A stretch of DNA of 64,000 nt from positions 163,728 through 227,727 of the forward strand of contig JADIYA010000007.1 in NCBI GenBank assembly GCA_016705545.1, written 5' to 3'. Shown piece after piece: positions 21,801-56,611 of this stretch. How positions within the stretch are numbered: position 1 is the stretch's first letter; every line of letters starts with the position of its first letter. The DNA is from Flavobacteriales bacterium (GTDB lineage Bacteria; Bacteroidota; Bacteroidia; Flavobacteriales_F; PHOS-HE28). Made by a program: the position numbers and the translations under genes. Below the pieces are notes generated by a model that worked only from the letters and a program-made list of their open reading frames with translations, had not been told where the DNA came from and did no database searches.

Positions 21801-24800
21801 ACCGGTCCGAACCTCACGAATGTGAGTGCTGGCGCATACTCCGTGCAGGTCACCGACTTCAACCAATGCAGCGCGGTGGTGCTGGTCAATATCGATGGAA
21901 CCTTGCCGCCCTCTGCAAACGCTGGCGACGACCTGGAGATCAACTGCACTACCGGAACTTCCGTGCAATTGAATGGTTCCAGCCAGACGCCAGGCGTGAA
22001 CTTCAGCTGGACCGGCCCTGGCATCGTCAACGGCGGCGGTTCAGCCAACCCTACGGTGAACGCACCCGGTACCTATACACTAACGGTCACCAATCCCCAG
22101 ACAGGCTGCACCGCGACAGATCAAGTTGATGTCACAGTAAACACGACTGTCCCCGGCGCCCAGGCCGCTGGCGGGACCATCACCTGCAGCAACGAGTGCG
22201 TGATGCTCAGCGGCACCGGCAACGGAAGCTTCGCATGGAGCGGCCCGAGCAACTTCAACAGCACCGAGCAGAACCCCACCGTGTGCGCCCCGGCATCTAC
22301 ACCCTCGTGGTCACCGGCAGCAACGGCTGCACCAGCACCGCCACCGCTGAGGTGGAGCAGGACACCGATGTCCCCGGCGCCCAAGCCGCTGGCGGGACCA
22401 TCACCTGCAGCAACGAGTGCGTGATGCTCACGGGCACCGGCAACGGAAGCTTCGCATGGAGCGGCCCGAGCAACTTCAACAGCACCGAGCAGAACCCCAC
22501 CGTGTGCGCCCCCGGCACCTACACCAAGCACCGCCACCGCTGAGGTGGAGCAGGACACCGATGTCCCCGGCGCCCAGGCCGCTGGCGGGACCATCACCTG
22601 CAGCAAGAGTGCGTGTGCTCAGGGCACCGGCAGGAAGCTTGCATGGAGCGGCCGAGCAACTTCAACAGCACCGAGCAGAACCCACCGTGTGCGCGGCACC
22701 TCCCTCGGGCGGCCCGCCCAGGGGGCCGAGTCCCGGCAGGGCGGACCCCAGCCCCACCACCACCGGTGGTCACCGGCAGCAACGGCTGCACCAGCACCGC
22801 CACCGCTGAGGTGGAGCAGGACACCGATGTCCCCGGCGCCCAGGCCGCTGGCGGGACCATCACCTGCAGCAACGAGTGCGTGATGCTCACGGGCACCGGC
22901 AACGGAAGCTTCGCATGGAGCGGCCCGAGCAACTTCAACAGCACCGAGCAGAACCCCACCGTGTGCGCCCCGGCATCTACACGCTCGTGGTCACCGGCAG
23001 CAACGGCTGCACCAGCACCGCCACCGCTGAGGTGGAGCAGGACACCGATGTCCCCGGCGCCCAGGCCGCTGGCGGGACCATCACCTGCAGCAACGAGTGC
23101 GTGATGCTCACGGGCACCGGCAACGGAAGCTTCGCATGGAGCGGCCCGAGCAACTTCAACAGCACCGAGCAGAACCCCACCGTGTGCGCCCCGGCACCTA
23201 CACCCTGGTGGTCACCGGCAGCAACGGCTGCACCAGCACCGCCACCGCTGAGGTGGAGCGCCACCACAAGGACAACCGGCCAGGCCGCTGGCGGACCATC
23301 ACCTGCAGCAACGAGTGCGTGATGCTCACGGGCACCGGCAACGGAAGCTTCGCATGGAGCGGCCCGAGCAACTTCAACAGCACCGAGCAGAACCCCACCG
23401 TGTGCGCCCCGGCACCTACACCCTCGTGGTGACCGGCAGCAACGGCTGCACCAGCACCGCCACCGCTGAGGTGGAGCAGGACAACGATGTCCCCGGCGCC
23501 CAGGCCGCTGGCGGGACCATCACCTGCAGCAACGAGTGCGTGATGCTCACGGGCACCGGCAACGGAAGCTTCGCATGGAGCGGCCCGAGCAACTTCAACA
23601 GCACCGAGCAGAACCCCACCGTGTGCGCCCCCGGCACCTACACCCTGGTGGTCACCGGCAGCAACGGCTGCACCAGCACCGCCACCGCTGAGGTGGAGCA
23701 GGACACCGATGTCCCCGGCGCCCAAGCCGCTGGCGGGACCATCACCTGCAGCAACGAGTGCGTGATGCTCACGGGCACCGGCAACGGAAGCTTCGCATGG
23801 AGCGGCCCGAGCAACTTCAACAGCACCGAGCAGAACCCCACCGTGTGCGCCCCGGCACCTACACCCTGGTGGTCACCGGCAGCAACGGCTGCACCAGCAC
23901 CGCCACCGCTGAGGTGGAGCAGGACACCGATGTCCCCGGCGCCCAGGCCGCTGGCGGGACCATCACCTGCAGCAACGAGTGCGTGATGCTCACGGGCACC
24001 GGCAACGGAAGCTTCGCATGGAGCGGCCCGAACAACTTCAACAGCACCGAGCAGAACCCCACCGTGTGCGCCCCGGCACCTACACCCTGGTGGTCACCGG
24101 CAGCAACGGCTGCACCAGCACCGCCACCGCTGAGGTGGAGCAGGACACCGATGTCCCCGGCGCCCAGGCCGCTGGCGGGACCATCACCTGCAGCAACGAG
24201 TGCGTGATGCTCACGGGCACCGGCAACGGAAGCTTCGCATGGAGCGGCCCGAGCAACTTCAACAGCACCGAGCAGAACCCCACCGTGTGCGCCCCCGGCA
24301 CCTACACCCTGGTGGTCACCGGCAGCAACGGCTGCACCAGCACCGCCACCGCTGAGGTGGAGCAGGACAACGATGTCCCCGGCGCCCAGGCCGCTGGCGG
24401 GACCATCACCTGCAGCAACGAGTGCGTGATGCTCACGGGCACCGGCAACGGAAGCTTCGCATGGAGCGGCCCGAGCAACTTCAACAGCACCGAGCAGAAC
24501 CCCACCGTGTGCGCCCCCGGCACCTACACCCTGGTGGTCACCGGCAGCAACGGCTGCACCAGCACCGCCACCGCTGAGGTGGAGCAGGACAACGATGTCC
24601 CCGGCGCCCAGGCCGCTGGCGGGACCATCACCTGCAGCAACGAGTGCGTGATGCTCACGGGCACCGGCAACGGAAGCTTCGCATGGAGCGGCCCGAACAA
24701 CTTCAACAGCACCGAGCAGAACCCCACCGTGTGCGCCCCCGGCACCTACACACCTGGTGGTCACCGGCAGCAACGGCTGCACCAGCACCGCCACCGCTGA

Positions 24801-27736: not shown

Positions 27737-29578
27737 ATGGCCGGTCGTCTTTTCCCGCGCTGGGGCATCCTCTTCATCGACTTGGTGCTGTGCATGGTGG
27801 CGCTGGCCTCAGCGTACCTGCTCCGATTCAACTTCAAGGTGCCTGCGCATGAGGTTGACCTTCTGCTGCCCGTGCTGCCCCTATTCCTGATCGTGCGCGC
27901 CGCTACCTTCCTGATCGCTGGCATTCCGCGCATCATGGTGCGGCACACCAGCACGGAGGATGCGCGCCGCCTCTTCCTCACCGTTGCTACTGGCACAGCG
28001 GTGCTCGGCGCGATCAGCATGCTGCGCTACCTCCTCTTAGATGGCCAGTACTTCCTGCCGCGCGCGGTGATCATCATCGACTTCATGGCCACCGCCATGC
28101 TGGTGATCTCAGCGCGCATCGCCTTCAAGCTGCTGCACCTGCGCAGCCGCGGCGCGGGCAAGGAGCGCGTGCGCGTGATCATACATGGTGCGGGCGAAGC
28201 GGGCCTGATCACCAAGCGCACGCTCGAGCGAGAGGGTTCGGTGAAGTACGAGGTCGTCGCGTTCATCGATGATGATGACCGCAAGGCCGGAAAGCGCCTT
28301 GAAGGGGTCGGCATAGCGAGCACCGGCCGATTGCCAGCCCTGCTCACCGAGAGCGTCGATCAGGTGATCATCGCCATCGGCAAGCCCGATCCGGAGAAAC
28401 GGCGCCAAGTGGTTGATGCCTGCATCGCCGCGAAGGTGCAGGTGCGCACCATTCCGCCTGTGAATGATTGGATCAACGGCCAGCTGAGCGCAGGGCAGAT
28501 CCAGCAGGTGCGCATCGAGGACCTGCTCGGGCGACAGGTGATCCACCTCGAGCAGGAAGCCGTGCGGCGACTCGTCGCCGGCAAGCGCGTACTGGTCACG
28601 GGTGCTGCGGGCAGCATCGGCAGCGAACTGGTTAGGCAGCTGGCGGAGATGGAAACGTCTGCTCTTGCGCTGGTGGACATCGCCGAGAGCGGCCTGTACG
28701 ATGTGCAGATGGAACTGGTGGGCAAGGGCCGCAGCGACAAGCTCCATGTGCACGTGGCCGATGCGCGCGACAGGAATCGCATGGAGGCCGTGTTCGCGCA
28801 GGAGCGTCCGCAACTTGTCTTCCATGCTGCAGCTTACAAGCATGTGCCCTTGATGGAAGCGCAGCCCGAAGAGGCCGTGCGCACCAACATCGGCGGCACG
28901 GGCACGGTGGCACGGCTGGCGTGCAAGCATGGGGTGGAGCGTTTCGTGCTCATCAGCACGGACAAGGCCGTGAACCCCACCAGCGTGATGGGGGCCAGCA
29001 AGCGCGCCGCCGAAATGCTCGTGGGCGCCATCGCGCAAGGCTGCGGAACCGTATTCGTCACAACGCGCTTCGGCAACGTTTTGGGCAGCAGCGGCTCGGT
29101 GATCCCGCTCTTTCGCAAGCAGATCGAGGCCGGCGGCCCGGTGACGGTGACGCATCCGGAAGTCACGCGCTTCTTCATGACCATCCCCGAAGCGTGCCGC
29201 CTGGTGATGGAAGCGGCGGCCATGGGCCAAGGCGGTGAGATCTACGTATTCGATATGGGCCAGCCCGTGCGCATCGCCGACTTGGCCGACAAGATGATCC
29301 GCCTCAGCGGCAAGGAGCCCGGTAGCGATATCACCATCACCTACACGGGCCTGCGCCCGGGCGAGAAGCTCTATGAAGAGTTGCTGACCACCGATGAGAA
29401 CACCTTGCCCACGCACCATCCTCGCATACTCATCGGGCAGGTGGCTCCGGTTGATGCCGAAGACGTGCTGCGCCGAACGGATGCGATGCTCCGGTTGATC
29501 GGCAATGAAGCCGTGCTCGCGCTGAAGGATATGATCCCTGAATACGGCCCAGAGAGCCGCGTGCGGACCGCACGTTGA
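27737..29578 (+). CDS. Polysaccharide biosynthesis protein of the CapD/WbpM/PglF type (membrane-anchored NDP-sugar 4,6-dehydratase).
   Basis: A 613-aa protein. N-terminal TM helices, then a Rossmann motif VLVTGAAGSIGSEL, the catalytic region FHAAAYKHVPLME and STDKAVNPTSVMGASKR. This is the typical CapD-like architecture. Confidence 0.9.
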   Translation: MAGRLFPRWGILFIDLVLCMVALASAYLLRFNFKVPAHEVDLLLPVLPLFLIVRAATFLIAGIPRIMVRHTSTEDARRLFLTVATGTAVLGAISMLRYLLLDGQYFLPRAVIIIDFMATAMLVISARIAFKLLHLRSRGAGKERVRVIIHGAGEAGLITKRTLEREGSVKYEVVAFIDDDDRKAGKRLEGVGIASTGRLPALLTESVDQVIIAIGKPDPEKRRQVVDACIAAKVQVRTIPPVNDWINGQLSAGQIQQVRIEDLLGRQVIHLEQEAVRRLVAGKRVLVTGAAGSIGSELVRQLAEMETSALALVDIAESGLYDVQMELVGKGRSDKLHVHVADARDRNRMEAVFAQERPQLVFHAAAYKHVPLMEAQPEEAVRTNIGGTGTVARLACKHGVERFVLISTDKAVNPTSVMGASKRAAEMLVGAIAQGCGTVFVTTRFGNVLGSSGSVIPLFRKQIEAGGPVTVTHPEVTRFFMTIPEACRLVMEAAAMGQGGEIYVFDMGQPVRIADLADKMIRLSGKEPGSDITITYTGLRPGEKLYEELLTTDENTLPTHHPRILIGQVAPVDAEDVLRRTDAMLRLIGNEAVLALKDMIPEYGPESRVRTAR

Positions 29579-30626: not shown

Positions 30627-33529
30627 ATGCCTGCACTGCGAATGCTCCTGCGCGGATTCCTCCGCCTCTTCGTCCCATGCTGCTGCTGTGCGGCGGCGGC
30701 TCATGCCCAGCAGTACAAGCTGCGCGGCATCGTGAGCGACGGCGCCACCGGTGAGACCCTCGTCGGCGCCAACGTGTTGCTCAAGGGCACCACAAACGGC
30801 ACGGTCACCGACATCGACGGGCGCTTCCAGTTGCTGGTGAGTGAGCTCCCGCCCTACACCCTTGTGGTGAGCTACATCGGATACACGCCGCTTGAACTCG
30901 TGGTGAAGAGCCTCGACAAGGAATTGAAGCTGAAACTCAGCACCGACCAGGTGCTGCTGGACGAGACCGAAGTCGTAGGCAGCCGCATCAGCGAGAAGCA
31001 GAAGCAGGCGCCGCTCACGGTGGAGAGCATGGACGTGATCGCCATCCGCGAAGCGCCCAGCGGCGACTTCTACGAGAGCCTCGGCACCCTCAAGGGCGTG
31101 GATATGACGGCAGCGAGCATGGGCTTCAAGGTACTCAACACGCGCGGCTTCAACAGCACCAGTCCCGTGCGCTCCTTGCAGCTGATCGACGGCGTGGACA
31201 ACCAGAGCCCCGGCCTCAACTTCTCACTGGGCAACTTCCTTGGCGCAAGCGACCTGGATGTGATGAAGGTGGACGTGATCGCCGGAGCAAGCACCGCCTA
31301 CTATGGCCCGGGCGCATTCAACGGCGTGGTGAGCATGACCACCAAGAGCCCGTGGAATTTCCCCGGCCTCAGCGTGAGCGCCAAGGGAGGTGAACGCGGG
31401 CTGCTTGAGGGAGCCGTTCGGTGGGCACAAGTCTTCAAGGACAAGGACGGCAAGCCGCGAGTCGCCTACAAGCTGAACATGTTCGGCATGCGTGCCGAGG
31501 ATTGGTACGCGCAGGATTATGGCGCAACGAGCAACAGCCCAACGCAACCGGGAAACCCTGGCCGCTACGATGGCGTGAACATCTACGGCGATGAGAACGT
31601 GACGGTGAACAACGACTTCAGTAACAACGCATTCGACCGCAGGACCTATCCCGGCCTTGGCTTATTCCTGCGACCTGGTTACCGAGAGGAAGACCTCGTT
31701 GACTACGGCACCACAACCTGAAGGCCGGCGCTTCGCTGCACTACAAGCTCACCGATAGCGTGGAGGTGATCGCAGCCGCCAACTACAGCACGGGCAGCAC
31801 GGTCTATCAAGGTGAGAATCGTTACCGCTTGGACGGCGTGCAATTCTGGCAACAACGGATCGAGCTGCGCAAGGAAGGCAAGTGGTTCGTGCGCGGCTAC
31901 TACACCGGCGAGGACGCCGGCAAGACCTACGACATCTTCACCACGGGCGTACGCCTCCAGGAAGCTGGCGGCGAAACGCGAGAGTGGAACGTCAAATACT
32001 TCACGCTGTGGGAGACCTGGATCAAGCCGCGCATCAACAACGAACGGCCTGATTTCATCACGGTGCAGGAGGCGCCCGGTGCGGGCATCACAACGCAAGC
32101 TGCCTACGATGCCTACATCCAGCAATTCGTCGCGGACAACAGCGGGCTATTCACTGGCTACCACAACGAGGTGGCCGATAGCATCGCCTTGATCGACAAC
32201 AACGAATTGAATCCATCCTACGTCGCGGGCACACAGCGCTTCAACGAGAAGCTCGATGAGATACGTGGCAAGCGCTTCACCGAAGGCGGATCGCTCTTCT
32301 ACGACCGGAGCGCGCTGGCGCACGCCATGGGCGAGTACCGCTTCAAGCCGAGGTTCGCAGAGATCGCCATAGGCGGCAGCTTCCGGCAGTACATGCCCAA
32401 CAGCGCGGGCACCATCTTCCGCGATACCGGCAATGTGGTGATCCGAAACAACGAATTCGGGCTCTATGCCGGCCTCGAGAAGAAGCTGATGAAGGAGAAG
32501 CTGAAGGCTACGGCCACGCTCCGAATGGACAAGAACCAGAACTTCAACGCGCTGCTCTCCCCTGCGCTGTCCTTCGTGTATGTGCCACGTCAGGACCGCA
32601 CCTTTCGGGTGAGCTTCAGCAGTGCGGTGCGCAACCCGACGCTCGCTGACCAGTACCTCTACTACAACGTGGGTCGCGCCATCCTCCTTGGCAATGTCGA
32701 TGGACAGTTCGAGGGCGGCCGCGACAGCCTGATCACCGTGGAGAGCTTCAACGATTACCGCTCCTCGCCCACCCTGCTCGAAGGCTTGGCAAAACTCGAC
32801 TACTTCAACGTTGACCGGCTGCGCCCCGAGCAGGTGCGCACCATTGAGGCCGGATACCGCGGAACGCATGCCGAGAAGTTCTACGTGGATGTGAGCGCCT
32901 ACAGCAGCTGGTACACCGATTTCATCGGTTACCTCATCGGGCTCAGCGCGCGCTTCGATCAGACCAATGGATTCCCCGTGGGCGGCCTTCAGGCCTACCG
33001 CCTTGCTGCCAACGCCACCACCACCGTGCGCACCCAAGGCGCCAACCTCGGCGTGAGCTACTTCCGCAAGCGGATGACCTACAGCGCGAACTACAGCTAC
33101 AACGAGCTCATCACCGGCGACGATGACCCCATCATCCCGGCCTTCAACACGCCGCGCAGCAAATTCAATGTGAGCTTTACCGGCCACGACATGAAGGTGC
33201 CCTTCAGCGGCAAGCCCAACCTCGGCTTCGGCATCAATTGGAAGTACGTGGAGGGCTTCACCTTCACCGGCTCACCGCAGTTCACCGGCCCTATCCCCAG
33301 CTACGACATGATCGATGCCCAGGTGAACGTCAAGTTCCCCGTGCAGCACCTCACGGTGAAGGTGGGCGGCAGCAATCTGTTCGGTTTCATCCCCATGTTC
33401 GAGGACTCGGAACCCAACAGGCCGCGGTGGGAACGCGTCTTCGACAATCAGGTGCGCATGGTGTACGGCGGCCCCTTCGTGGGAAGGCTGGCCTACGTGC
33501 AGCTGATCTATGAATTGGATAGGCGCTGA
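30627..33529 (+). CDS. TonB-dependent receptor with an N-terminal carboxypeptidase-regulatory-like domain. A single-base indel near 31712 splits the frame (ORFs 30627..31721 and 31760..33529).
   Basis: Signal peptide, CarbopepD_reg-like YKLRGIVSDGATGETLVGANVLLKGTTNGTVTDIDGRFQL, plug domain, and a beta-barrel ending in an aromatic C-terminus. At 31706..31716 ggcaccacaacctg is read where ggcacccacaacctg (GTHNLKAGASLHYKL) is expected. Confidence 0.8.
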
Positions 33530-45039: not shown

Positions 45040-45075
45040 CTCTAGAACTGGAAGTAAATGAAGGGCACCATCTCC
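45040..45075 (+). repeat. Downstream copy of the 36-bp direct repeat, overlapping the stop codon and last 11 codons of the MBOAT gene.
   Basis: Exact match to 43441..43476. Confidence 0.9.
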
Positions 45076-46709
45076 GCTGTCACAGTCTGGTAGATGAGCG
45101 CCACCGTGGCGGCGCAGGCCAGTGCCATGGCCCAGAGCGGAAGCGATGCGAAGCCCTCGCGGTAGCGCTGCTTGATGGATTCCGGCAGCCAATGCACCAC
45201 GAGGCCGATGAGCATCAGCATGAACACACTCTTGAATGCGACGAGCACATCGAGCATGTGCCTTGTACCGAAATCACCGGTGAGTTGATGCAGGAAGGCG
45301 TCGGCGGTCTCCAGATCGGGGCTTCTGAACCAGATGCGTGTGAAGGAGATGAAGGCGAAGGTGAGCGCCACCTTCCAGGCATGCGCGAGCCAGTGCGGGC
45401 TCTTCTCCCAGGGACTGATCCGCTTCCACTGCTTGTACACCAGCAGGCCGATCCCGTTGAGGCCGCCCCAGATCACGAACATCCAACTGGCACCATGCCA
45501 CAGACCGCCGATGAGCATGGTGATCATCAGGTTGCTGTTGGTGGTGATCGCTATCTGCAAGCCGGGCCAGAAGCGCGTGAGCACAGCGAACAGCGCAACC
45601 GCACTGAGGTAGACCACCGGCAACCACCACCACCCGGTGAGCAGCACGAGCGCCGCGCCGATCACGCTGAGCATGATCCACGAGAAGAGCGACCCCCCGC
45701 GATTGCCACCCATGGGGATGTAGAGGTAATCGCGCAGCCAGGTGCTGAGGCTCATGTGCCAGCGCTTCCAGAATTCGGCCACGTTGCGCGCCTTGTACGG
45801 GCTGTTGAAATTCATGGTGAGCCGGAAGCCCATGAGCAGCGCGACGCCGATGGCGATGTCGGTGTAGCCGCTGAAGTCGGCGTAGACCTGCAACGAGTAG
45901 CCGCCGAGCGCCATCAGGTTCTCGAAGCCGGTGAATCGGAGGGGATCGGCGAAGACGCGATCGATGAAGTTCACGGCGATGTAGTCGCCCACCACCATCT
46001 TCTTCACGAGGCCATTGAGGATCCAGAAGACAGCGATCCCGAACTCGGCGCGTGCGAGCGCGAAGGGCTTGGTGATCTGCGGGATGAACTCGCTGGCGCG
46101 CACGATGGGGCCAGCCACCAGTTGCGGGAAGAAACTCACGTAGAAGCCGAAATCGAACAGGTTGCGAACGGGCTTAAGGTCGCCCCGGTACACATCGATC
46201 GCGTAGCTCATGCACTGGAAGGTGTAGAAGCTGACGCCCACGGGCAGGAGCACTTTGTTCTCCACGAAATGCGCATCCCACGCGAGGTTGGCCCAGCGCG
46301 CGAAGAAGTTCACCGGCTGGAACGCAGTGCCTGCGATGGCATTGATGTTCTCGACCACGAAGTGCGCGTACTTGAAAAAGAGCAGCACGCTCAGGTTGAG
46401 GGTGATGCTGACCGCGAGCAGCACGCGCTTGCGCAGGCGATCGTCCGTAGCACCGCTGGCACGGCCGATCACGAAATCCATGACGATGCTGAAGAGCAAC
46501 AGGCCCACGAAGAGCCCGCTGGTCTTGTAGTAGAAGAAGAGGCTCACGGCGAATAGCCAGCCGCTGCGAACCAGCGGACGCCGGTGCACCAGCGAATACC
46601 CGGCGAGCACCACGGCGAAGAAGCCCCAGAAGAAGAACCGCGTGAAGATCACCGGCGACTGCGCGTCGTACGCCAGGATCGAGGTCCAGTCGAAGGCGAG
46701 CGTGGTCAT
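45042..46709 (-). CDS. MBOAT family membrane-bound O-acyltransferase (AlgI/DltB/PatA-like).
   Basis: A 555-aa polytopic protein. The MBOAT core FWKRWHMSLSTWLRDYLYIPMGGNRGG has the conserved His. Upstream is FSGYTDIAIGVALLMGF. Confidence 0.9.
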   Translation of the reverse strand: MTTLAFDWTSILAYDAQSPVIFTRFFFWGFFAVVLAGYSLVHRRPLVRSGWLFAVSLFFYYKTSGLFVGLLLFSIVMDFVIGRASGATDDRLRKRVLLAVSITLNLSVLLFFKYAHFVVENINAIAGTAFQPVNFFARWANLAWDAHFVENKVLLPVGVSFYTFQCMSYAIDVYRGDLKPVRNLFDFGFYVSFFPQLVAGPIVRASEFIPQITKPFALARAEFGIAVFWILNGLVKKMVVGDYIAVNFIDRVFADPLRFTGFENLMALGGYSLQVYADFSGYTDIAIGVALLMGFRLTMNFNSPYKARNVAEFWKRWHMSLSTWLRDYLYIPMGGNRGGSLFSWIMLSVIGAALVLLTGWWWLPVVYLSAVALFAVLTRFWPGLQIAITTNSNLMITMLIGGLWHGASWMFVIWGGLNGIGLLVYKQWKRISPWEKSPHWLAHAWKVALTFAFISFTRIWFRSPDLETADAFLHQLTGDFGTRHMLDVLVAFKSVFMLMLIGLVVHWLPESIKQRYREGFASLPLWAMALACAATVALIYQTVTAEMVPFIYFQF

Positions 46710-46767
46710 GCCGGTGCGTAGCGTCGCTTGAATGCGATCCGGTAGCTCATAGCAGAACTTTCACGGG

Positions 46768-48033
46768 TCATGGGGCCGTGCGCTTGAGGTGCTCCCCGTA
46801 CTTCTCGATCATCGCACCGAACAGCAGGTCGCCCAGCAGTTCGTAGCCCGCGCGGTTCAGGTGAACACGGTCGGCTTTGGCCATGCCCGCCTTCTCCCAG
46901 CGCCTGATGCTGGCCTCTCCGCCCATCACGCCCCAGCTGTCCCAGACACCCACGCCTTCATTGGCGCTGAGGCGCAGCATGGCATCGCGCACCGCACCCG
47001 CGTTCTTGTTCACGAAGCGCCGCTTCATGTAGCTGTCCGTGTTGGTGGTGAGCAGGATCGCGGCACCCGGTTCCGCGACGCGGATGCGGCGGATCAGCTC
47101 CCGGTAGTTGGCCTCATACCGCGCCGCGTTGAAGTCGGGATCATGCGCGTCGTTGATGCCGATGGAGAGGATGACGAGGTCCGGTCCCAGGAGCAAGCTC
47201 CTCGCTGAAGCGCTGGCAGCGCAGCCAACTCGTGGTGCTCGCGCCATTCACGCCGAGGGCATGCAGCACCACACCGGGGTCGTCGCCGTCGAGCACGATG
47301 CCGCGCAAGGTGAATTGCCGCTGCATGGAATCGGTACGCGCGATGCGCAGCTGCAGCGTGTCCACGTACCGGTCGTAAGTGAACTCGGTGAACCCGCCGG
47401 CTTCATCCACGCGACGAGCGATGCGCAGCGTGCTGTCCCGATCCCACGCGGTGACGGCGTAGCTGCTGTCCGGGCGATGCAGCACCCGCACGCGCCGGAA
47501 AGGATATCCCGCATGGATGTCTGTTCGGAAGCTCACCTTCAGCTCAGCGAGCGTGTCACGCGTGGTGGCGCTGATTCCGCGATGCCGAGGATGCTGCTGT
47601 CGGCGCGCGTGACATTGCGCACGGCAGTCCACTTGCCGGTGTACTCCGGCCGGTACCACCATGGCGTGTTGCTCTTCGCCATGGCATAAGGGAAGACGAA
47701 GCCGCGTCCTGCGCGCATACCGGGCGACAATGTCTGCAAGCGGTGCCGCAACTGCATGCTCCATTGATCGGCCTGCACATGCGAACCGCCGATATGAGCA
47801 ATGCTCATTCTCCCTTCACCCTCGAAGACCAGCTTGTCCAATTTGGCGTGAAAACGTGCCCACGCCGCGCTATCGCCTTTGAAGATGATCCGGTTCGCAG
47901 CGGCGTTCACGAAGGGAAGCTCCTTCACGCGCACCGGATTGCCCTGCGAATGGGCCGATGATGCCAGCAACATCGCCAGCAGTGCGATGAGGAGGCGGCT
48001 ATTGCTGCGCGGCATGATGATCGGCGTAGGCAT
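46768..48033 (-). CDS. SGNH/GDSL hydrolase family protein (DltD/PatB-like), with the frame broken in two places.
   Basis: Three consecutive minus-strand ORFs encode parts of one protein: 47539..48033 (signal peptide ...MSIAHIGGSHVQADQW..., the SGNH block I Ser region), 47141..47764, and 46768..47247 (...LVILSIGINDAHDP...DRVHLNRAGYELLGD, blocks III and V). Confidence 0.55.
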
Positions 48034-49475
48034 CGATCAGAGCGGTGTAGAAGAGCTCGCCCACTTTGCGCGCGCCCAACGGGCTGAAATGCGTGTAGTC
48101 CTCGGCAGCGAGCGGCGGATCGGCCTGCACCCAGCTCACCATGCTGTTGCGGCCGCCCATGGCGTCGTACATGTCCCAGAACACCGCGCCTTGCGCGAGC
48201 GTGTTGGCCTTCATCGCGTCGCGCACGTCCTCGAGGTAGGGCCGCGTCACATAGTCTTCGCCTTCTTTGATGCTCATGTCGCTGGGGCCGATGACGACCA
48301 CCGGAACACCGGGCGCCAGCTTGCGGAAGCGGCCGATCTGCGCGCCGAAGAAGCGGCCATACTGCTCCGCTTCCTCCTTGCTCTTCAGGCTGGGGCACGT
48401 TGCCGCCGTATTGGAGGATCAACCAGGAAGGACCGAGCTGTGCGTACATCGACGCTAATAGCCCCTTGGTCCTGCCGCTTGAATTCTAGCCCGCGGCGCC
48501 GCGTGCCGCGATGTTGTCCACAGCCACTCCATTGCGGCCATCGAGGGCGATACCGAAGACGTCGGGACTGTCTGTCCCTCGGAAGCGAAGGGTCAACTCC
48601 TTCGGCGGCGATTCGAGTCGCCATTCGCGCAGCAGCAGTTCGTTCGCGGGGGCGATGGTCTCACTCGTAAGCTCCACCCCATCGGCTTCCACCGTGATGG
48701 TCACAGGTGCGCGGTGCCAACCGAACCAGAGCTTGCACCGGCTCCACGCCTGCGCTTTCGCGTAGCACTTGCGGTCGGGCTTCAAGGTCACGAATGCCTC
48801 ATGCACGATGGTGTCCGGCACGATGGTGTCGTTGAGGATAGGTGAGAATCGGGAGAATGCGGAGAGTGCGCCGAACCGATCGTGGCGCTGCTCTTTGGGC
48901 TTCTTGCCCATCACGCTGTACCGATTCCAATCGCCGCCGAGTACGCGCTCCACGCTGAAGTGCGGCACAATGTCCGCCACGGCAATGAGGCCCGGGCCGT
49001 TGCCTCCGAATTGCACTTGCAGTTTGTTCCGCACGTATGCCGTGATCCGATCGCCCTCGATCTGCGAATCACCGTAGTGCAGGATGCGGACCGGCTTCGC
49101 CTGCGCCGCAGCCGACTCCAGATCAGCGAAGAATGGCTGAAGCACCGACGCACCTTGCGCGGGGAAATGCAGCTTGATGCGCTCCTCCAATGGCGCTAGA
49201 GTGCTCGGGTCGAAGGCTGGCACCGATGCGGCCGAATCAGCGGGCACTTCCACGGTGATCGTGTCCAATGCCGCCTCTGTTGAATCCGTGGCCACCGCCA
49301 GGATATCACTGATGTCCACGCGCACCTGTTCCTCGGGAAAGAGAACGTCGCGCCAGCGCGGCATGCGTAACGTGAGCCCGCCGATGGATAGACCGTCCTG
49401 TGGGATCAGCTGCCCGATGAGCGTTAGCAAAGCCAGCACCGCGAGCAGGAAAACGAGCACGCGTGCCGGACTCAT
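47999..49475 (-). CDS. Second SGNH hydrolase family protein (paralogue, DltD/Ape-like), with an in-frame TAG at about 48486 and an additional frame break.
   Basis: ORF 48486..49475 has the N-terminus MSPARVLVFLLAVLALLTLIGQL...RILHYGDSQIEGDRITAYVR (GDS block). It continues past the TAG as ...GLLASMYAQLGPSWLILQYGGN. ORF 47999..48301 (...VVVIGPSDMSIKEGEDYVTRPYLEDVRDAMK...DYTHFSPLGARKVGELFYTALIDAY) is the C-terminal block. There is an ATGA overlap with the mltD-like gene stop. Confidence 0.5.
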
Positions 49476-50956
49476 CGCTTGGTGGGGACTTTGATGCGCT
49501 GGCCAGGCCGGATGCCAGGGCCGATGCCGTTCACCCGCATGAGGCTGTCGGCATCGACGCCGGGATAACGCTTCGCGATGCCGTAGAGCGAATCGCCCTT
49601 CCGCACCGTGTACCACGTGAAGCGTTCTCCCGTTGAATGCGAAAGCGCATCACCGGCCTTCAGCGGCACCTGCGCCGTCGAGCCATCGGGTTTCGGCGAA
49701 GCATCGTTCACCGGTTCATCGGCATCGTCGTTCTTCTCCTGCTGCTTCTCGAAGCGCGCGCGCTGCGCAGGCGTCACCCAGATAACCAGTTCCTCGCCCA
49801 CATCGATGTGATCGCTGCGCATGCGGTTCCAAGTCTTGATCTGCGACACCTTCACGTTGAAGCGCTGCGCGATACGGCCGAGGAAATCGCCGCTGCGCAC
49901 GCGGTAGTAGATAGCCTCACGGCCGCTCGGCCCTTGTGCCACGGCATCGGTGCCGGGCTCGCTAGCGGTGCGTGCGCGTTCAATCAGCGCTAGCTGCACA
50001 TGCGCAATGGAATCGGACAACGCCGTATAGCGGACGCCCTCGCCCTTGGGCACCAGCAGCGCATGGTAGGCGGGCACCTGCGCGCCGCAGAGCGTGGGAT
50101 TGAGTGCACGTAATCGGGGCACCGGCAGGCCCAAGGCCACCGCCAGCGCATCGAAGCGCACGGGCTGCGGGGATCGCAGGGTGTCTGCGGGCTCCATCGG
50201 TGTCACCATCATGGGCGCAATGCCGAGTTGGTCCTGGTGCAATGCGAGGTAGCTCATCGCCATCCATAAGGGCAGCGCATCGCGCACGCCTTCGGTCACA
50301 TGCGGATAGAGCTCGCGCAGCTCCGGAGTCGCGCGTGTGCGTCCGATCGCGCGCTGCACGTTTGCCGGTCCGCAGGCGAAGGCCATGATCGTTCGGCTCC
50401 AGTCGCTGTAGTGCTGGAAGAGGTCCTTGAGGTAGCGTGCCGCGGCCATCGTGCACAGGCGTGGATCGCGGCGCTCGTCCACTTCACCGTTCACTCGCAG
50501 GCCGTAGCGCAGTGCCACTGGATAGGTGAGCATCCAGAGGCCAGCGCCGCCTTCCGGACCCTCGGCCAACGTGTTCATGCACGAGAGCGCGAGCGGTAGG
50601 CGCTTCAGCTCCTTCGGCAAGCCGTGCTGCACCAATTCGCCCTCGATGAGTGCATCGTACGCACGGGCAAGTCCGAGAGCAGCCCGCAGGTCGTCGCGGC
50701 GCGCCTCACCGAGCACGTCCACGTAGCGCGCTACGAGGCTGTCAGCGAAGACGGGCAAGCCGGGCTGTCCGGTGCGCAGCTTGGCGTACAGGTCGCGCAT
50801 GTCCATGGCGCGTACCACGCCCGGCCCGTGCTGGCGACGGTCGGCTTCCTGTGCCGCTTGCACGGGCCACGTGGCGGCGAGGCTATCGAGCCGCCACAGT
50901 GGCTGCGCTGCTGCGCACGCAGTGGTGAGAACGGAGAGGAACGCGAAGGCGCGCAT
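49472..50956 (-). CDS. Membrane-bound lytic murein transglycosylase D-like protein (SLT domain plus two LysM domains).
   Basis: Signal peptide MRAFAFLSVLTTACAAAQ. SLT catalytic region LPLALSCMNTLAEGPEGGAGLWMLTYPVALRYGL...TIMAFACGPANVQRAI. Two LysM repeats: YYRVRSGDFLGRIAQRFNVKVSQIKTWN and WYTVRKGDSLYGIAKRY. Confidence 0.85.
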   Translation of the reverse strand: MRAFAFLSVLTTACAAAQPLWRLDSLAATWPVQAAQEADRRQHGPGVVRAMDMRDLYAKLRTGQPGLPVFADSLVARYVDVLGEARRDDLRAALGLARAYDALIEGELVQHGLPKELKRLPLALSCMNTLAEGPEGGAGLWMLTYPVALRYGLRVNGEVDERRDPRLCTMAAARYLKDLFQHYSDWSRTIMAFACGPANVQRAIGRTRATPELRELYPHVTEGVRDALPLWMAMSYLALHQDQLGIAPMMVTPMEPADTLRSPQPVRFDALAVALGLPVPRLRALNPTLCGAQVPAYHALLVPKGEGVRYTALSDSIAHVQLALIERARTASEPGTDAVAQGPSGREAIYYRVRSGDFLGRIAQRFNVKVSQIKTWNRMRSDHIDVGEELVIWVTPAQRARFEKQQEKNDDADEPVNDASPKPDGSTAQVPLKAGDALSHSTGERFTWYTVRKGDSLYGIAKRYPGVDADSLMRVNGIGPGIRPGQRIKVPTKR

Positions 50957-51050
50957 GGGGGCGCGTAAAGCAAGAACCGCGCGCACCTTGGAACACGCGA
51001 CGCAGCGTGGGCATTTTGCACGGATGGGTGTTGAGGGGGTGCAATGACCC

Positions 51051-52097
51051 TTAGGCCCCCAGCACCCCGCACAGATGCCACAGCAGACGTGCACCCACGT
51101 TGGCATCCCATTCATCCTTGCCGGGGCTCACCTCCACGAGATCGAAGCCGATGATGGTGCGCTTGGCGGCGAGGCGAGAGAGCAGATAGGTGGCTTCTTC
51201 GAAGGCGAGACCGCCCGGCACCGGCGTGCCCGTGTTTGGGCATAGCGTGGGGTCGAGCCCGTCGATGTCGAAGCTGATGTGCACCTTCTCCGGCAATGCG
51301 TTGATGATGGCCTCGCATTGCTGTTGCCAAGTAGCGCCTTCGAACTGCATGGCGCGGATGTCGGCGCTGCGCACAACGCGCACGCGGTCCTTCTGCTTCA
51401 GGAAGACATCGTTCTCCTGTTGGCAGAAGTCGCGGATGCCCACGCTCACGATGCGCTCCAGCTGCGGCAGCGCGAGCGCGTTGTGCATGATGCTGGCGTG
51501 GCTGTACAGGAAGCCTTCGTAGGCGATGCGCAGGTCGAGGTGCGCATCGATGTGCAGAATGCCGAATTTCTTGTGGCGCTTGGCCTGTGCGCGGAGGAGG
51601 CCGAGCGGCGTGCTGTGATCGCCGCCCACGAGGCCAACCCGTTTTCCCTTCTTCAACCAGTAGGCGCAGCGCTCCTCCACCCAATCGTTCATCACAGCGC
51701 ATTCCTCATTGATGAGCACCATGGCCTCGGCGGCTTTGGCGAGCTTTTTCGGACTCGTTTCGCCGGTCTGCGTCTCAATCACGAGCGCGGCGAGCTTCTT
51801 CAGGGTGGCGCTCTGCTGCTTCAAGGCCTTGGGTACTTCATCCATGGCGATGCCGCGTTTCCATAGCCCGGGGAACTCCGGATGGAATAGGTCCACTTGC
51901 AGGCTGGCTTCCCGGATGGCCTGGGGGCCCCGCGAGCATCCGCCGCCGTAGCTGGTGGTCACTTCCCACGGCACGGGCACGAGCACGATATCGGCCTCTT
52001 CGCAGGTGAAGGGCAGGCCGTAGATCTGCGCGCTGGGGTCAGCGGGGCTGTTCGGGTCGAAGGACTTGGTCTTGGCGGTCTTGCTCATGGCGGCCAA
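51051..52097 (-). CDS. Arginase/agmatinase/formiminoglutamase family protein (ureohydrolase).
   Basis: A 348-aa protein with Mn-binding motifs GGDHSTPLGL, ILHIDAHLDLR and SFDIDGLDP. Confidence 0.85.
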   Translation of the reverse strand: MAAMSKTAKTKSFDPNSPADPSAQIYGLPFTCEEADIVLVPVPWEVTTSYGGGCSRGPQAIREASLQVDLFHPEFPGLWKRGIAMDEVPKALKQQSATLKKLAALVIETQTGETSPKKLAKAAEAMVLINEECAVMNDWVEERCAYWLKKGKRVGLVGGDHSTPLGLLRAQAKRHKKFGILHIDAHLDLRIAYEGFLYSHASIMHNALALPQLERIVSVGIRDFCQQENDVFLKQKDRVRVVRSADIRAMQFEGATWQQQCEAIINALPEKVHISFDIDGLDPTLCPNTGTPVPGGLAFEEATYLLSRLAAKRTIIGFDLVEVSPGKDEWDANVGARLLWHLCGVLGA

Positions 52098-52580: not shown

Positions 52581-52776
52581 GTGAAGAACCGGTGGGCAAA
52601 GATGCTCCCGACCGGGCTTGCGCATATCGGGGATCCGCTTACGTTTGCGCCGTACTGCATCAACGGGCTCCGTTCGGAGCCTGTGACCCGACTGAAATCT
52701 TACCGGATCGCATGAGGCCCTGAAGGGCTTTCCGCATGGCGCAATGGCGCCACTCCATTCACACTACCGCACGCAT

Positions 52777-54599
52777 ATGCACGACCAAGAGGCGCTCAGC
52801 GCCATGAAGCTCGCTGAGCTGAAGGACATCGCGAAGAAGCTAGGCCTGAAGAAGACCGACACCCTGAAGAAGCAGGACCTGGTGGCCAAGATCCTGGAGG
52901 CCCAAGCTTCCAAAAAGGGCGAAGGGGAAAAGGCCATTGGCCCAGCCTTCCGCGGCGACGATAAGGACCTCACCGACCTAGCCACTTCGGACGAACCCAG
53001 CGTTGTAGAGGATCCCGAACCGGAGCCTACGACCATGGGCGATGACCATGACGACGACGAGGAGGACGGTGATGACGATGAGGAGGACGATGATGACGAG
53101 GACGAGGACGAGACCAGCGAAACGGACGTGAAGGCTGCTTCCGGCGCCCCTCCACCGCCTCCAGAGGCTCCATCCGGTCAGAATCCGAACCGCGAGACCC
53201 GGCAGGACCGTTGGCGAGATCGTCGCGAGCGTCAACGGCAGGAGCGTCAACAAGGAGGCGAACAACGTCCGGCGCAGGAGCAGCGCCCGCAGCAGGAACC
53301 CCGCTCCAGAACAGGGCGATCGCCCACGCGAGGATCGGCGCGATGACGCCGCGACGACCGGCGCGATGATCGCCGCGAACCGCGCCAGGACCGTCCGCAA
53401 GGCAATGGCGGAGAGCAGCGGGTCGACCAACGCGGCGATCAGCAGCGGCAGGACCGCCCTTTCCAGCCGCCGCGCGAGCAGGTCACCTTCGACGCCTTCG
53501 TGGAATGCGAAGGCGTGCTGGAAGTGATGCCCGAAGGCTATGGCTTCCTGCGCAGCAGCGACTACAACTACCTCGCATCGCCGGACGATGTGTACGTGAC
53601 GCAGCAGATCATCAAGCGCTGGCCTGAAGCTCGGCGACACGGTGAGCGGCTTCGTGCGCCCGCCACGCGAGGAGGACAAGTTCTTCCCGCTGGTGAAGAT
53701 CGATCGGATCAACGGCCGCGATCCCGAATGGGTCCGCGACCGTGTCCCCTTCAAGTTCCTAACCCCCTGTTCCCCGACGAGAAATTCACCTCGCCGCCAA
53801 GGACACCAACATCAGCATGCGCGTGCTCGACCTCTTCGCGCCCATCGGCAAGGGACAGCGCGGCTTGATCGTGGCTCAGCCCAAGACCGGCAAGACCGTG
53901 CTGCTGAAGGACGTGGCCAACGCCATCGCCGCGAATCATCCGGAAGCGTACCTGATCGTGCTGCTCATCGATGAGCGCCCGGAGGAAGTGACCGACATGG
54001 CCCGCAGCGTGAAGGCCGAAGTGATCGCGAGCACCTTCGACGAACCCGCCTCACGCCACGTGGCGGTCGCCGGCATCGTGCTGGAAAAAGCGAAGGCGCT
54101 CACGGAATGTGGTCACGATGTGGTGATCCTGCTCGACTCCATCACGCGCCTGGCCCGCGCCTACAACACCGTGCAACCGGCCAGCGGCAAGATCCTCAGC
54201 GGTGGTGTGGACGCGAACGCGCTGCAGAAGCCCAAGCGCTTCTTCGGAGCCGCGCGGAAGATCGAGAACGGCGGCTCACTCACCATCCTCGCCACCGCTC
54301 TGGTCGATACCGGCAGCAAGATGGACGAGGTGATCTTCGAGGAGTTCAAGGGCACGGGCAACATGGAACTCGTGCTCGACCGGAAGATCAGCAACCGCCG
54401 CATCTTCCCCGCCATCGACATCATGAGCAGCGGTACCCGCCGCGACGATCTGCTGCACCACAAGGAAGTCCTCCAACGCACGTGGATCCTGCGCAAGCAC
54501 CTCGCCGACATGAACCCCGTTGAAGCCATGGAGTTCGTGAAGAAGCACATGGAGGGTACGAAGAGCAACGAGGAGTTCCTGGTCTGGATGAATGGTTGA
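52777..54599 (+). CDS. rho: Transcription termination factor Rho with a long low-complexity N-terminal insertion (acidic, then R/Q/D-rich). An in-frame TGA at 53344 and at least three indels interrupt the frame.
   Basis: N-terminus [43 protein letters not shown]. Insertion: ...[21 protein letters not shown]...[18 protein letters not shown]...[21 protein letters not shown]-binding OB region [34 protein letters not shown]. ATPase core 53817..54599: [32 protein letters not shown]...[16 protein letters not shown]. The frame switches near 53619 (extra t) and at about 53766 and 53784 (C-run deletions). Confidence 0.9.
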
Positions 54600-54747
54600 G
54601 GGTGATGACGGTTGCGCGCGAAGCCGCCGTTCGTCGACCTAGGGGCGGGGAGCCAGGAATGCGGCTTCGTGGTCTTGGCTGTTCGCATCGTCGTCATCGC
54701 TTTGCGATTGCCCACGGCCTGATGCCGCGCCACAGGGTGCCGATTTC

Positions 54748-55137
54748 ATGCTGGTGCATTTCCTGGCGATCGTGACCGTGGTCTTCTTCAATCAGCTGCG
54801 CTTCCTGCGCAAGGCGAAGGAAGACGCCGGATTCCCACATCTGGTGCGCGAGGGATTCAAGGGCGCTGCGATCTACGCGCTGATCATGCTGCTCTTCCTC
54901 TGGTGGTACTACCATGCCATCGAGACGGACGCCTTCGAGCGGCGGGTGGAGCAACTCGTGTTCAGTGCTGTTGAAGAAGGACAGGAGGAGCTTCGGGTGC
55001 GCCCGATGATCATGCGCTTCTTCACTCCATTCAACTACGCGAGCATGAGCTTCTTCGCGCTCCTGGCGGCAGGGGTCGCGAACGCGCTCATCATCGGTGC
55101 CATCCACCACAAGATCCTGCGCCGCGCTATGCGGTGA
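54748..55137 (+). CDS. Hypothetical small membrane protein; family uncertain.
   Basis: A 129-aa protein with three predicted TM helices (MLVHFLAIVTVVFF, AAIYALIMLLFLWWYY, FFALLAAGVANALIIGAI). Confidence 0.5.
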   Translation: MLVHFLAIVTVVFFNQLRFLRKAKEDAGFPHLVREGFKGAAIYALIMLLFLWWYYHAIETDAFERRVEQLVFSAVEEGQEELRVRPMIMRFFTPFNYASMSFFALLAAGVANALIIGAIHHKILRRAMR

Positions 55138-56497
55138 AGGCCTCGCTGAGCGCCTGCAGGTCCAGTCCTCCGAAATTGCCGCTGCTCATCATCAAGAGCA
55201 CGCTGTCCCCTCCGATGCCCTTGCGCACCTCGCCCATCACGGCAATGGGGTCGTTGAGCACGATGAGGTCCTCGCGTGCGAAGGCACGCTTCACGCGCTC
55301 CACAGGGATCGGCGGCAGGCGCTTGAGTTCCACCGCATGCGGGTCGTAGAAAACGATGGCATGATCCGCCGCGTCCATGCAGCCGGCGTATTGGTCGATG
55401 AAGCCCTCGTTGAGGCTGCTGTAGGTGTGCAGCTCCATGCAGGCCACCAAGCGGCGATCAGGGAATTGCTCGCGCACGGCTTCCAAGGTGGCTTTCAACT
55501 TGCTCGGTGAATGCGCGAAATCCTTGAAGACGATGCGACCCGGGGACTCAGCCAGCTTCTCCAGCCGCTTTGCCGCTCCGTGGAAGGTGCCGATCGCCGC
55601 ATGGAACTCCTTTTCGCCGATGCCGAGCAGATGGCACACATGGCGCGCACCCTCGAGGTTCTGCAGGTTGTGCTTGCCGAAGACCTGCAGCGGGACATCG
55701 CCATGCGCGGTCTCGAGAATGGTGACGCCATCGACGATGCGATGCTTCGGCACGCCGTAGCCCACGCGCTGCGCCTTCACTTCTTTCTCCTCCCCCGCTT
55801 CCCTTACCGTGCCATCTTCCGTGCAATACACCAGCTTGCCGCCAGGCTCAATGCAGGCGATGAACTTGCGGAACTGGTCCACGTAGCTCTCGAAGGTCTT
55901 GAACACGTTCACATGATCCCATGCGATCCCGCTGATGAGCGCGATGTCCGGCTTGTACAGGTGGAACTTGGGTACCGGTTCCAAGGCAGAAGCGAGGTAC
56001 TCATCGCCCTCGATGATGGCCACCCGGCTGCTGTCGCTGAGCTTCACCATGCAATCGAAGCCGTCGAGTTGCGCGCCAACGAGGTAGTCGAATTCCACTT
56101 GGGCGTGGCGCAGCACATGCACGATCATGCTGGTGATGGTGGTCTTGCCGTGGCTCCCGCCGATCACCACACGGGTCTTGCTCTTGGTGCGCTCGTAGAA
56201 GTATGAGGGGTAGCTATAAACGGGGATGCCCAGTTCCTGGGCTCGCTTCAGTTCAGGATTGTCGATGCGGGCGTGCATGCCGAGGATCACGGCGTCAATC
56301 TCCTTGGTGATGTCCTCCGGATGCCAGCCGAGCCGATCGGGCAAGAGGCCAAGGCGATCCAATCGGCTGCGGCTGGGCTCGAAGATCTCATCGTCGCTGC
56401 CGGTGATGTCGAAGCCCTGGCGATGCAGCGCGATGGCCAGATTGTGCATGGCGCTGCCGCCGATGGCGATGAAGTGGAGGCGTTTAGGGGGGGGCAT
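55127..56497 (-). CDS. mpl: UDP-N-acetylmuramate:L-alanyl-gamma-D-glutamyl-meso-diaminopimelate ligase (Mpl) / Mur ligase family protein.
   Basis: Start MPPPKRLHFIAIGGSAMHNLAIAL. Mur ligase motifs GSHGKTTITSM and DEYLAS, plus a C-terminal domain. It lacks the MurC-specific N-terminal extension, which is consistent with Mpl. Confidence 0.75.
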   Translation of the reverse strand: MPPPKRLHFIAIGGSAMHNLAIALHRQGFDITGSDDEIFEPSRSRLDRLGLLPDRLGWHPEDITKEIDAVILGMHARIDNPELKRAQELGIPVYSYPSYFYERTKSKTRVVIGGSHGKTTITSMIVHVLRHAQVEFDYLVGAQLDGFDCMVKLSDSSRVAIIEGDEYLASALEPVPKFHLYKPDIALISGIAWDHVNVFKTFESYVDQFRKFIACIEPGGKLVYCTEDGTVREAGEEKEVKAQRVGYGVPKHRIVDGVTILETAHGDVPLQVFGKHNLQNLEGARHVCHLLGIGEKEFHAAIGTFHGAAKRLEKLAESPGRIVFKDFAHSPSKLKATLEAVREQFPDRRLVACMELHTYSSLNEGFIDQYAGCMDAADHAIVFYDPHAVELKRLPPIPVERVKRAFAREDLIVLNDPIAVMGEVRKGIGGDSVLLMMSSGNFGGLDLQALSEAFTA

Positions 56498-56611
56498 CTT
56501 CTCAAAGGCCAAGTGAGCATGTGCAACCGACCTCGCCGCGAAGCTGCGTGACACTGCGCAAGAGGAACTGCTCCGCGATGAATGATCGTGAACGATTCCG
56601 TGTGGAATGCG

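Follow-up and report, generated by a model that had tools for sequence, protein, structure and literature searches.

A probable O-acetyl-peptidoglycan gene cluster of the Bacteroidota type in a Flavobacteriales genome

The 64,000-nucleotide stretch of contig JADIYA010000007.1 analysed here (the window) comes from a member of the Flavobacteriales that is uncultured, has a high GC content and is known from samples of the wastewater type. Positions 45042-50956 of its minus strand hold four co-directional genes that encode, in 5' to 3' order, an MltD-like protein, two SGNH hydrolases (SGNH1 and SGNH2) and an MBOAT acyltransferase. This set is probably an O-acetyl-peptidoglycan (OAP) cluster of the Bacteroidota type, in which the MBOAT would supply acetyl groups, one SGNH protein would place them on peptidoglycan and the other would remove them. 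The cluster is a Flavobacteriales member of a kind that has been known in the phylum since 2005. An original prediction, made from the letters of the window, had proposed that an MBOAT and SGNH proteins act together in acyl transfer, with peptidoglycan as the target, and this proposal is supported.

O-Acetylation of peptidoglycan controls autolysins and sensitivity to lysozyme. To our knowledge, PatA/PatB of Proteobacteria and Campylobacterota and OatA of Firmicutes are the only systems with an established mechanism. Among the Bacteroidota are major gut commensals whose walls are heavily O-acetylated. Their cluster, with two Ape1 paralogues and no PatB, extends over several orders of the phylum, to at least 594 species genomes by the count of SGNH1 relatives, and SGNH1 can be named as a candidate for their transferase. 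What remains of interest is which protein is this transferase, and the repeated loss of active-site residues from the linked MltD homologue.

The genes and their junction are as follows:

49472..50956, minus strand: MltD-like gene, 494 amino acids
49472..49475, minus strand: ATGA in which SGNH1 starts and the MltD-like gene stops, by direct reading of the letters (SGNH1 ATG 49475..49473; MltD-like TGA 49474..49472)
47999..49475, minus strand: SGNH1 ("Ape1b-like"), about 492 amino acids after repair; stop codon TAG at 47999..48001
46768..48033, minus strand: SGNH2 ("Ape1c-like"), about 416-422 amino acids after repair; stop codon TGA at 46768..46770
45042..46709, minus strand: MBOAT gene, 555 amino acids, intact; ATG at 46709

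Pfam recognises MBOAT (5e-23), Lipase_GDSL_2 in SGNH1 (2.6e-9) and SGNH2 (1.3e-19), and SLT plus two LysM domains in the MltD-like protein. The ATGA overlap is a predicted translational coupling of the MltD-like gene with SGNH1. The start codon of SGNH2 is the ATG at 48033 (or that at 48015), within the 3' end of SGNH1, and SGNH2 and the MBOAT gene are 58 nucleotides apart. The open reading frame (ORF) of the MltD-like gene that is listed up to 51115 is an upstream extension, the relatives being 481-494 amino acids long and starting at the Met of MRAF. On reading the sequence and searching Pfam, the predicted coordinates, overlap, gap and gene families all hold, and the coordinates bear out a single co-directional, overlapping gene set.

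By sequence and by structural model, the two SGNH proteins are classified as Ape1-type paralogues, which resemble a known de-acetylase and not a known transferase; hydrolysis would be the expected reaction of this family, but one of the two, or both, may be a transferase instead. Ape1 is the best solved relative of both: against Ape1 of Neisseria meningitidis (4K3U), SGNH1 scored 1.1e-12 as a single sequence and 7.3e-20 as a profile, and SGNH2 scored 1.7e-18 and 5.4e-29. Ape1 was the sole relative of SGNH1 in a profile search of PDB sequences, and the runner-up for SGNH2 was far behind (8.8e-7); Campylobacter jejuni Ape1 (8GKD/8GLD) was also matched by both. AlphaFold2 models were made from intact relatives that are 93% and 99% identical (P0001 and P0121), with alignments of 55-56 sequences, and their predicted local distance difference test (pLDDT) scores were 88.8 for SGNH1 and 90.3 for SGNH2. 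Both models superpose on 4K3U, 8GKD and 8GLD with target-normalised template modelling (TM) scores of 0.77-0.82. The next fold matches were xylan and other carbohydrate esterases, with TM scores of at most 0.62, and these were partial, covering an SGNH core of about 170 residues. In both AlphaFold2 models, a β-sandwich that resembles a family 35 carbohydrate-binding module (CBM) is inserted between blocks I and II (residues 162-323 in SGNH1 and 127-261 in SGNH2), which is a hallmark of Ape1. With an hhalign probability of 98.8% and 25% identity, the two proteins are full-length paralogues of one another. Five residues (the catalytic Ser, Gly of block II, Asn of block III, and Asp and His of block V) are invariant or nearly so among 83 SGNH1 and 74 SGNH2 sequences. 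In the window, these blocks lie at:

49065..49067, minus strand: SGNH1 catalytic Ser137, in motif I GDSQ
48498..48500, minus strand: SGNH1 block II Gly326
48399..48413, minus strand: SGNH1 block III, QYGGN
48098..48100 and 48089..48091, minus strand: SGNH1 block V Asp and His, respectively
47782..47784, minus strand: SGNH2 Ser, in GGSH
47240..47254, minus strand: SGNH2 block II, GVNGA
47146..47163, minus strand: SGNH2 block III, IGINDA
46858..46872, minus strand: SGNH2 block V, DRVHL

A PatB-type transferase was not seen beside them. Profile searches of PDB sequences with either SGNH protein returned no PatB, AlgJ/X, DltD, OatA or WssI chain at E≤10; PatB, AlgJ/AlgX, DltD and WssI were likewise absent from the top 50 fold matches of the two models, and SGNH1 had no match to Pfam DUF459 (PF04311, the PatB family). 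The PatA/PatB-type pairing of the original prediction was therefore given up in its PatB half, there being no DUF459 transferase, while the Ape-like esterase that it had also placed in the cluster is confirmed by the sequence and fold of the SGNH proteins. A reading of the pair as PatB plus Ape1 was rejected, since neither protein is DUF459/PatB-like by sequence, profile or fold, and DltD-like, AlgX-like and lipase readings were rejected for want of any such match at the same three levels. The profile searches and structure prediction that had been suggested as a check thus place both proteins with the carbohydrate (peptidoglycan) O-acetylesterase Ape1 and not with DltD or lipases. A block II Gly to Ser change in SGNH1, which a single-sequence alignment to Ape1 had indicated, was dropped when profile and profile-profile alignments put Gly326 on the Ape1 Gly.

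The MBOAT protein matches PF03062 with 82.3 bits (cut-off 27), and its nearest solved structures are those of DltB (6BUG/8JEM, E 5e-25). It was reported that PatA auto-acetylates the Tyr of a C-terminal FxYxxF motif in a His-dependent manner, and that its SGNH partner receives the acetyl group from this Tyr (Anderson et al. 2025, PMC12148441). The invariant catalytic His of CjPatA is His315 (PMC12148441). The window protein has both elements:

45756..45758, minus strand: catalytic His318, within RWHMSLSTWLRDYLY
45045..45062, minus strand: C-terminal FIYFQF, with Tyr552 at 45054..45056

The position of His318 is His in all 64 aligned orthologues that cover the region, and FIYFQF is kept in about 58 of 60 full-length orthologues. 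The MBOAT is thus predicted to be PatA-like, with an intact acetyl-Tyr shuttle motif, and would be expected to auto-acetylate. A PatA-specific model does not exist, and the protein can equally be called AlgI/DltB-like.

The two SGNH proteins differ in how they would be held at the membrane. Ahead of its catalytic module, SGNH1 has an N-terminal transmembrane helix, then a juxtamembrane segment that is conserved and a linker that is disordered, and this layout of anchor and linker is matched by PatB. SGNH2 has a cleavable signal peptide followed by the Ape1-type SGNH domain; the difference in length between the two (70 amino acids) is N-terminal. SGNH1 is also farther from Ape1, and SGNH2 nearer. 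Four Bacteroidota loci (L033, L048, L076 and L079) have SGNH1 followed directly by the MBOAT gene, with no SGNH2 within 7 kb. Because both SGNH proteins have the Ape1 fold and no PatB is present, one of these two is the candidate transferase, and SGNH1 is favoured on account of its PatB-like anchor and linker, its greater divergence and the four loci that pair it with the MBOAT without SGNH2. We infer that SGNH1 is the transferase and SGNH2 a soluble periplasmic esterase, a division of labour that active-site motifs do not prove.

The mechanism proposed is as follows. The MBOAT would take acetyl from cytoplasmic acetyl-CoA, and His318 would load it onto Tyr552 of the FIYFQF tail at the periplasmic face. 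An SGNH partner, for which SGNH1 is favoured, would accept the acetyl group on its block I Ser and pass it to the C6 hydroxyl of N-acetylmuramic acid in peptidoglycan. The second SGNH protein, for which SGNH2 is favoured, would strip O-acetyl groups again and so allow the wall to be remodelled. The MltD-like protein, which retains its fold and its LysM domains, would most likely bind peptidoglycan as an accessory without catalytic activity and serve in targeting or regulation. A bolder version can be advanced only tentatively: that SGNH1 is the enzyme of the PatB step across much of the Bacteroidota, converted independently on an Ape1 esterase fold without the block II change, and that the co-translated MltD-like protein is a dead LysM adaptor to peptidoglycan that targets or regulates the acetylation/de-acetylation pair.

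The MltD-like protein has an N-terminal signal or lipoprotein-like peptide, a degenerate SLT domain and two LysM domains. Its best PDB match is MltD of Pseudomonas aeruginosa (PaMltD, 8RHE; E 1.6e-20), to which it is similar along some 210 residues of the catalytic module, and it scores 107.1 bits against the NCBIfam MltD model NF008050, for which the cut-off is 508. The domains and active-site positions are:

about 50327..50620, minus strand: SLT domain, degenerate (Pfam 8e-14)
49781..49912, minus strand: LysM domain 1 (Pfam LysM 3e-28 for both LysM domains)
49478..49615, minus strand: LysM domain 2
50585..50587, minus strand: codon of Leu124, at the catalytic Glu position (PaMltD E144), with ES changed to LS; LPLALSCMN is aligned with LPVIESAYN
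50528..50542, minus strand: motif II, GLWML, where GLWQ is canonical; PaMltD Q162 is replaced by Met
50369..50383, minus strand: motif III, AFACG, where AYN(A/C)G is canonical; PaMltD Y214-N215 is replaced by Phe-Ala

In PaMltD, E144 is the acid/base, Q162 binds the +1 sugar and Y214/N215 bind the -1/-2 sugars (PMC11327851). The same paper identifies the acid/base, a Tyr that aligns it and two sugar-binding residues (PMC11327851). According to the alignment to 8RHE, Y249 of PaMltD is also replaced, by Ala. Since the catalytic Glu and three further active-site residues are lost, the protein is probably not an active lytic transglycosylase. This bears on the original prediction, which had pictured a linked lytic transglycosylase restrained by O-acetylation; the protein is probably not such an enzyme.

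Leu is found at the catalytic Glu position in L001, L002 and other close relatives as well. Forty-seven MltD-like proteins encoded directly upstream of SGNH1 were compared, and 16 retain all of ES, G.WQF and AYNCG; these come mostly from Bacteroidales metagenome-assembled genomes. The other 31 have neither the Glu nor motif III, and include the Flavobacteriales lineage of the window, Draconibacterium/Maribellus and Cyclobacteriaceae. The ratio of nonsynonymous to synonymous substitution rates (dN/dS) of the MltD-like gene in the window is 0.12, which indicates purifying selection. Taken together, the lost active-site residues and the purifying selection suggest that it is probably a maintained, non-catalytic LysM-bearing protein that binds peptidoglycan. 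The order of SLT followed by LysM is common to MltD, the family 1D lytic transglycosylase of Escherichia coli and P. aeruginosa (8RHE), and to the window protein, but the latter has two LysM domains where MltD has four, and is without the catalytic Glu, GLWQ and AYNxG. The linked MltD homologue has lost its catalytic residues repeatedly while being kept under purifying selection.

The arrangement of the four genes is widespread. A homologue scan with one genome per species found a relative of SGNH1 in at least 594 species genomes, and 79 loci from Flavobacteriales, Bacteroidales, Chitinophagales, Cytophagales and Sphingobacteriales were analysed. SGNH2 comes after SGNH1 in 63 of 71 loci and the MBOAT gene follows in 59 of 65; the triad of SGNH1, SGNH2 and MBOAT is complete in 50 of 59. 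An MltD-like gene lies directly upstream in 43 of 70 loci from several Bacteroidota orders, often overlapping, so that the synteny with mltD, which had also been named as a check, is conserved in the sample. All four genes are together in 33 of 59 loci. Across these species, at least 594, the cluster appears to be near-universal and single-copy. Dozens of Bacteroidota genomes repeat the same order, far more than chance would produce.

Several loci depart from this order. Where no MltD-like gene is present, the upstream genes are heterogeneous (a recurring ORF beginning MNISKKDINAL, response regulators) and no alternative conserved partner was seen among them; the recurring ORF may be trigger-factor-like. 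SGNH1, with or without SGNH2, has no nearby MBOAT gene in six loci (L017, L030, L046 and L068-L070). Among the downstream ORFs listed for these six loci, none of which was searched by profile, no substitute acyltransferase was recognised by eye. The loci without MBOAT and those with only SGNH1 and MBOAT could help to tell the roles of the SGNH proteins apart. L030 (CAXPZW010000013.1) is labelled Luminiphilus sp., a genus of Gammaproteobacteria, yet its SGNH1-SGNH2 pair is like those of Bacteroidota (39% identity to SGNH1 of the window); this pair could come from a mis-binned contig or from lateral transfer.

The closest known relatives of the cluster are those that Weadge, Pfeffer & Clarke defined in 2005 as O-acetyl-peptidoglycan clusters (PMC1199599). 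An order of ape1b-ape1c-pat, without ape2, was described in Bacteroides thetaiotaomicron, Bacteroides fragilis and Porphyromonas gingivalis (PMC1199599); ape2 was later renamed patB. O-Acetylation of peptidoglycan was measured in two Bacteroides species and amounted to 27% and 69% (PMC1199599). The window shares with these clusters the phylum and the order of a longer Ape1-family gene, a shorter one and an AlgI-like MBOAT gene, with no Ape2/PatB. GDS-type and DxxH motifs are common to both, the window variants of motif I being GDSQ and GGSH, and the first Ape1-type protein of P. gingivalis is membrane-anchored, like SGNH1. The differences are that a cation-efflux gene lies upstream in the Bacteroides clusters, whereas a degenerate MltD-like gene is joined into the operon in the window, and that Ape1c is described by Weadge et al. 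as lacking a segment of about 100 amino acids after motif I, whereas SGNH2, compared by description, aligns with SGNH1 through the whole insert.

The patA-patB-ape1 operon of Neisseria and Campylobacter has in common with the window the MBOAT His and FxYxxF motif, an Ape1-fold esterase with a CBM-like β-sandwich, and co-directional genes. It includes PatB, in whose place the window has a second Ape1 paralogue without the block II Gly change, and the gene order is reversed, as the SGNH genes stand ahead of the MBOAT gene in the window. Alginate (AlgI-AlgJ-AlgF-AlgX), WssH/WssI and DltB/DltD/DltX systems likewise combine an MBOAT with one or two extracytoplasmic SGNH-type partners; AlgI-type MBOATs share the C-terminal Tyr motif, and AlgJ/AlgX comprise one anchored and one soluble partner, as do SGNH1 and SGNH2. 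However, AlgJ, AlgX, WssI and DltD have no similarity in sequence or fold to the SGNH proteins of the window, which has no equivalent of AlgF, DltC or DltX and no nearby genes for polymer synthesis.

Several points weigh against an OAP cluster with these roles. The match to the clusters of 2005 (NP_811593-95 in B. thetaiotaomicron) is by description, and a homologue search seeded with L035, a locus from a metagenome-assembled genome labelled Bacteroides sp., reached environmental Bacteroidales only and gave no link to named gut Bacteroides proteins. Biochemical or genetic tests of this type of cluster in Bacteroidota were not found in the later open-access literature that was searched. To that extent, the earlier view that such a system is undescribed in the lineage stands for gene-level experiments, but not for the cluster type or for Bacteroides peptidoglycan O-acetylation, both of which were reported in 2005. 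The MltD-like gene is missing upstream in 27 of 70 loci and is, therefore, not an obligate part of the system, and the SGNH gene or genes have no MBOAT nearby in six of the 65 loci sampled. Further objections concern the transferase. In PatB and OatA, the block II Gly is changed to Ser/Asn (PMC12148441), while in the window proteins it is canonical (an invariant R-G in SGNH1 and N-G in SGNH2, against N-G in Ape1). The sole DUF459 match belongs to SGNH2 and not to SGNH1, and is below threshold (18.2 bits against 27.2). About one tenth of the listed SGNH2 relatives (P0137, P0148, P0152, P0163, P0188 and others) have precomputed PF04311 and GDSL matches, and no SGNH1 relative has. Judged by sequence, neither SGNH protein bears the mark of a transferase.

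The weak DUF459/PatB-family matches of SGNH2 could instead belong to an acetyl relay like that of AlgI, AlgJ and AlgX, without a dedicated esterase, in which the acetyl group would pass from the MBOAT tail to SGNH1 and then to SGNH2, whose inserted CBM would place it on the polymer. SGNH1 and SGNH2 are conserved together beside the MBOAT (63/71 and 59/65 loci), and one is anchored and the other soluble, which is the topology of AlgJ and AlgX in alginate acetylation (PMC9487903). Yet both are Ape1-like, and neither resembles AlgJ, AlgX or PatB by sequence or by fold; SGNH2 stands closer than SGNH1 to Ape1, a proven esterase, and SGNH1 occurs with the MBOAT but without a nearby SGNH2 in four loci; such a relay is considered unlikely. 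A different substrate has also to be weighed, namely another surface glycan (an exopolysaccharide, or a lipopolysaccharide-linked or glycoprotein glycan) that would be acetylated or de-acetylated. Sequence alone cannot give substrate specificity, the MBOAT fits AlgI/DltB as well as PatA for lack of a PatA-specific model, and a Polysacc_synt_2 gene (27737..29578) lies about 15 kb away. However, the nearest solved relatives of the SGNH proteins are peptidoglycan O-acetylesterases, which xylan and other esterases follow at a wide distance, and the adjoining gene, often overlapping across orders, encodes a peptidoglycan-binding LysM/SLT protein. In neither the window nor L083 do genes for glycosyltransferases or for polysaccharide synthesis or export adjoin the cluster, and its near-universal, apparently single-copy occurrence is unlike that of variable glycan loci. 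O-Acetylated peptidoglycan is, moreover, found in Bacteroides species with this type of cluster (PMC1199599). A substrate other than peptidoglycan appears, on balance, rather improbable.

It might finally be supposed that both SGNH genes are real pseudogenes in this strain and that the cluster is being lost. Both are broken by insertions or deletions (indels), located by alignment to the relatives L001 and L083:

48394..48486, minus strand: three frame-shifting indels in SGNH1 (-1 at 48486, which makes a TAG at 48484..48486; +1 at 48462-48465; -2 at 48394)
47195..47578, minus strand: two frame-shifting indels in SGNH2 (-1 at 47576-47578; -2 at 47195)

Five such indels within 1.3 kb, between an MltD-like gene and an MBOAT gene that are intact, are what a decaying locus could look like, and G-runs hold no more than two of them, so some fall outside homopolymers; this, too, speaks against an intact OAP cluster. 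All five, however, are specific to the window. L083 (GCA_963851565.1) is 98.9% identical over 21.3 kb, with the same gene order and all four genes intact, and the four are also intact in L001 (89% DNA identity) and in two short metagenome contigs. With the indels read through, dN/dS between the window and L001 is 0.07 for SGNH1 and 0.11 for SGNH2, compared with 0.06-0.15 for neighbouring genes, and the ratios of indels to substitutions (3:5 and 2:9) are far above those of neutral decay. The gene for Rho (52744..54599, plus strand), which is normally essential, is split into three ORFs by the same type of indel (-1, -1, -2, +23 and +1 relative to L083), and a TonB-dependent receptor gene and a giant repeat adhesin gene elsewhere in the window are broken too. 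The intact genes of L083, the broken Rho gene and the low dN/dS values indicate that, as the original prediction had supposed, the five SGNH frame breaks are almost certainly errors (of assembly or consensus) and not gene decay, and the pseudogene reading is disfavoured as very improbable.

Other irregularities are present in the sequence around the cluster. The Rho gene has 68 substitutions relative to L083, the highest number of all genes compared, and contains the low-complexity N-terminal insertion domain that is typical of Bacteroidota Rho. Sixteen small deletions relative to L083 are packed into 54611..54719, where a DUF4199 gene has its 5' end and the intergenic region adjoins it; the stretch is either misassembled locally or hypervariable. 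A TonB-dependent receptor gene (30627..33529, plus strand) is divided into two ORFs, one with CarboxypepD_reg and Plug (364 amino acids) and one with the β-barrel (589 amino acids), probably by a further assembly frame break.

Scans for promoters and terminators gave numbers of sites that were not above those in shuffled sequence, and the Bacteroidota -7 motif TAnnTTTG was not enriched, with none upstream of the cluster. A terminator-like hairpin (50976..51001, minus strand) between an arginase-family gene (51051..52097) and the start of the MltD-like gene could set the cluster apart from the gene upstream, but shuffled sequence has terminator-like sites just as often. Beyond Rho, at a distance of about 4 kb, lies a gene of the Mur-ligase family (55127..56554, minus strand) with N, M and C domains, whose product has 456 amino acids in relatives. 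Its position is conserved only in close relatives, and its size suggests the muropeptide-recycling ligase Mpl. The giant surface-protein gene, the repeat adhesin gene mentioned above (18627..27644, plus strand), has a C-terminal tail of the kind recognised by the type IX secretion system, and its frame is broken many times, by indel errors or collapsed repeats. Its repeats (22148..26343) comprise about 19 tandem copies that are 91% alike, with a Cys-rich unit of about 221-222 nucleotides (74 amino acids), and these tandem repeats account for a block with a GC content of 0.68 and an AT-skew of 0.33.

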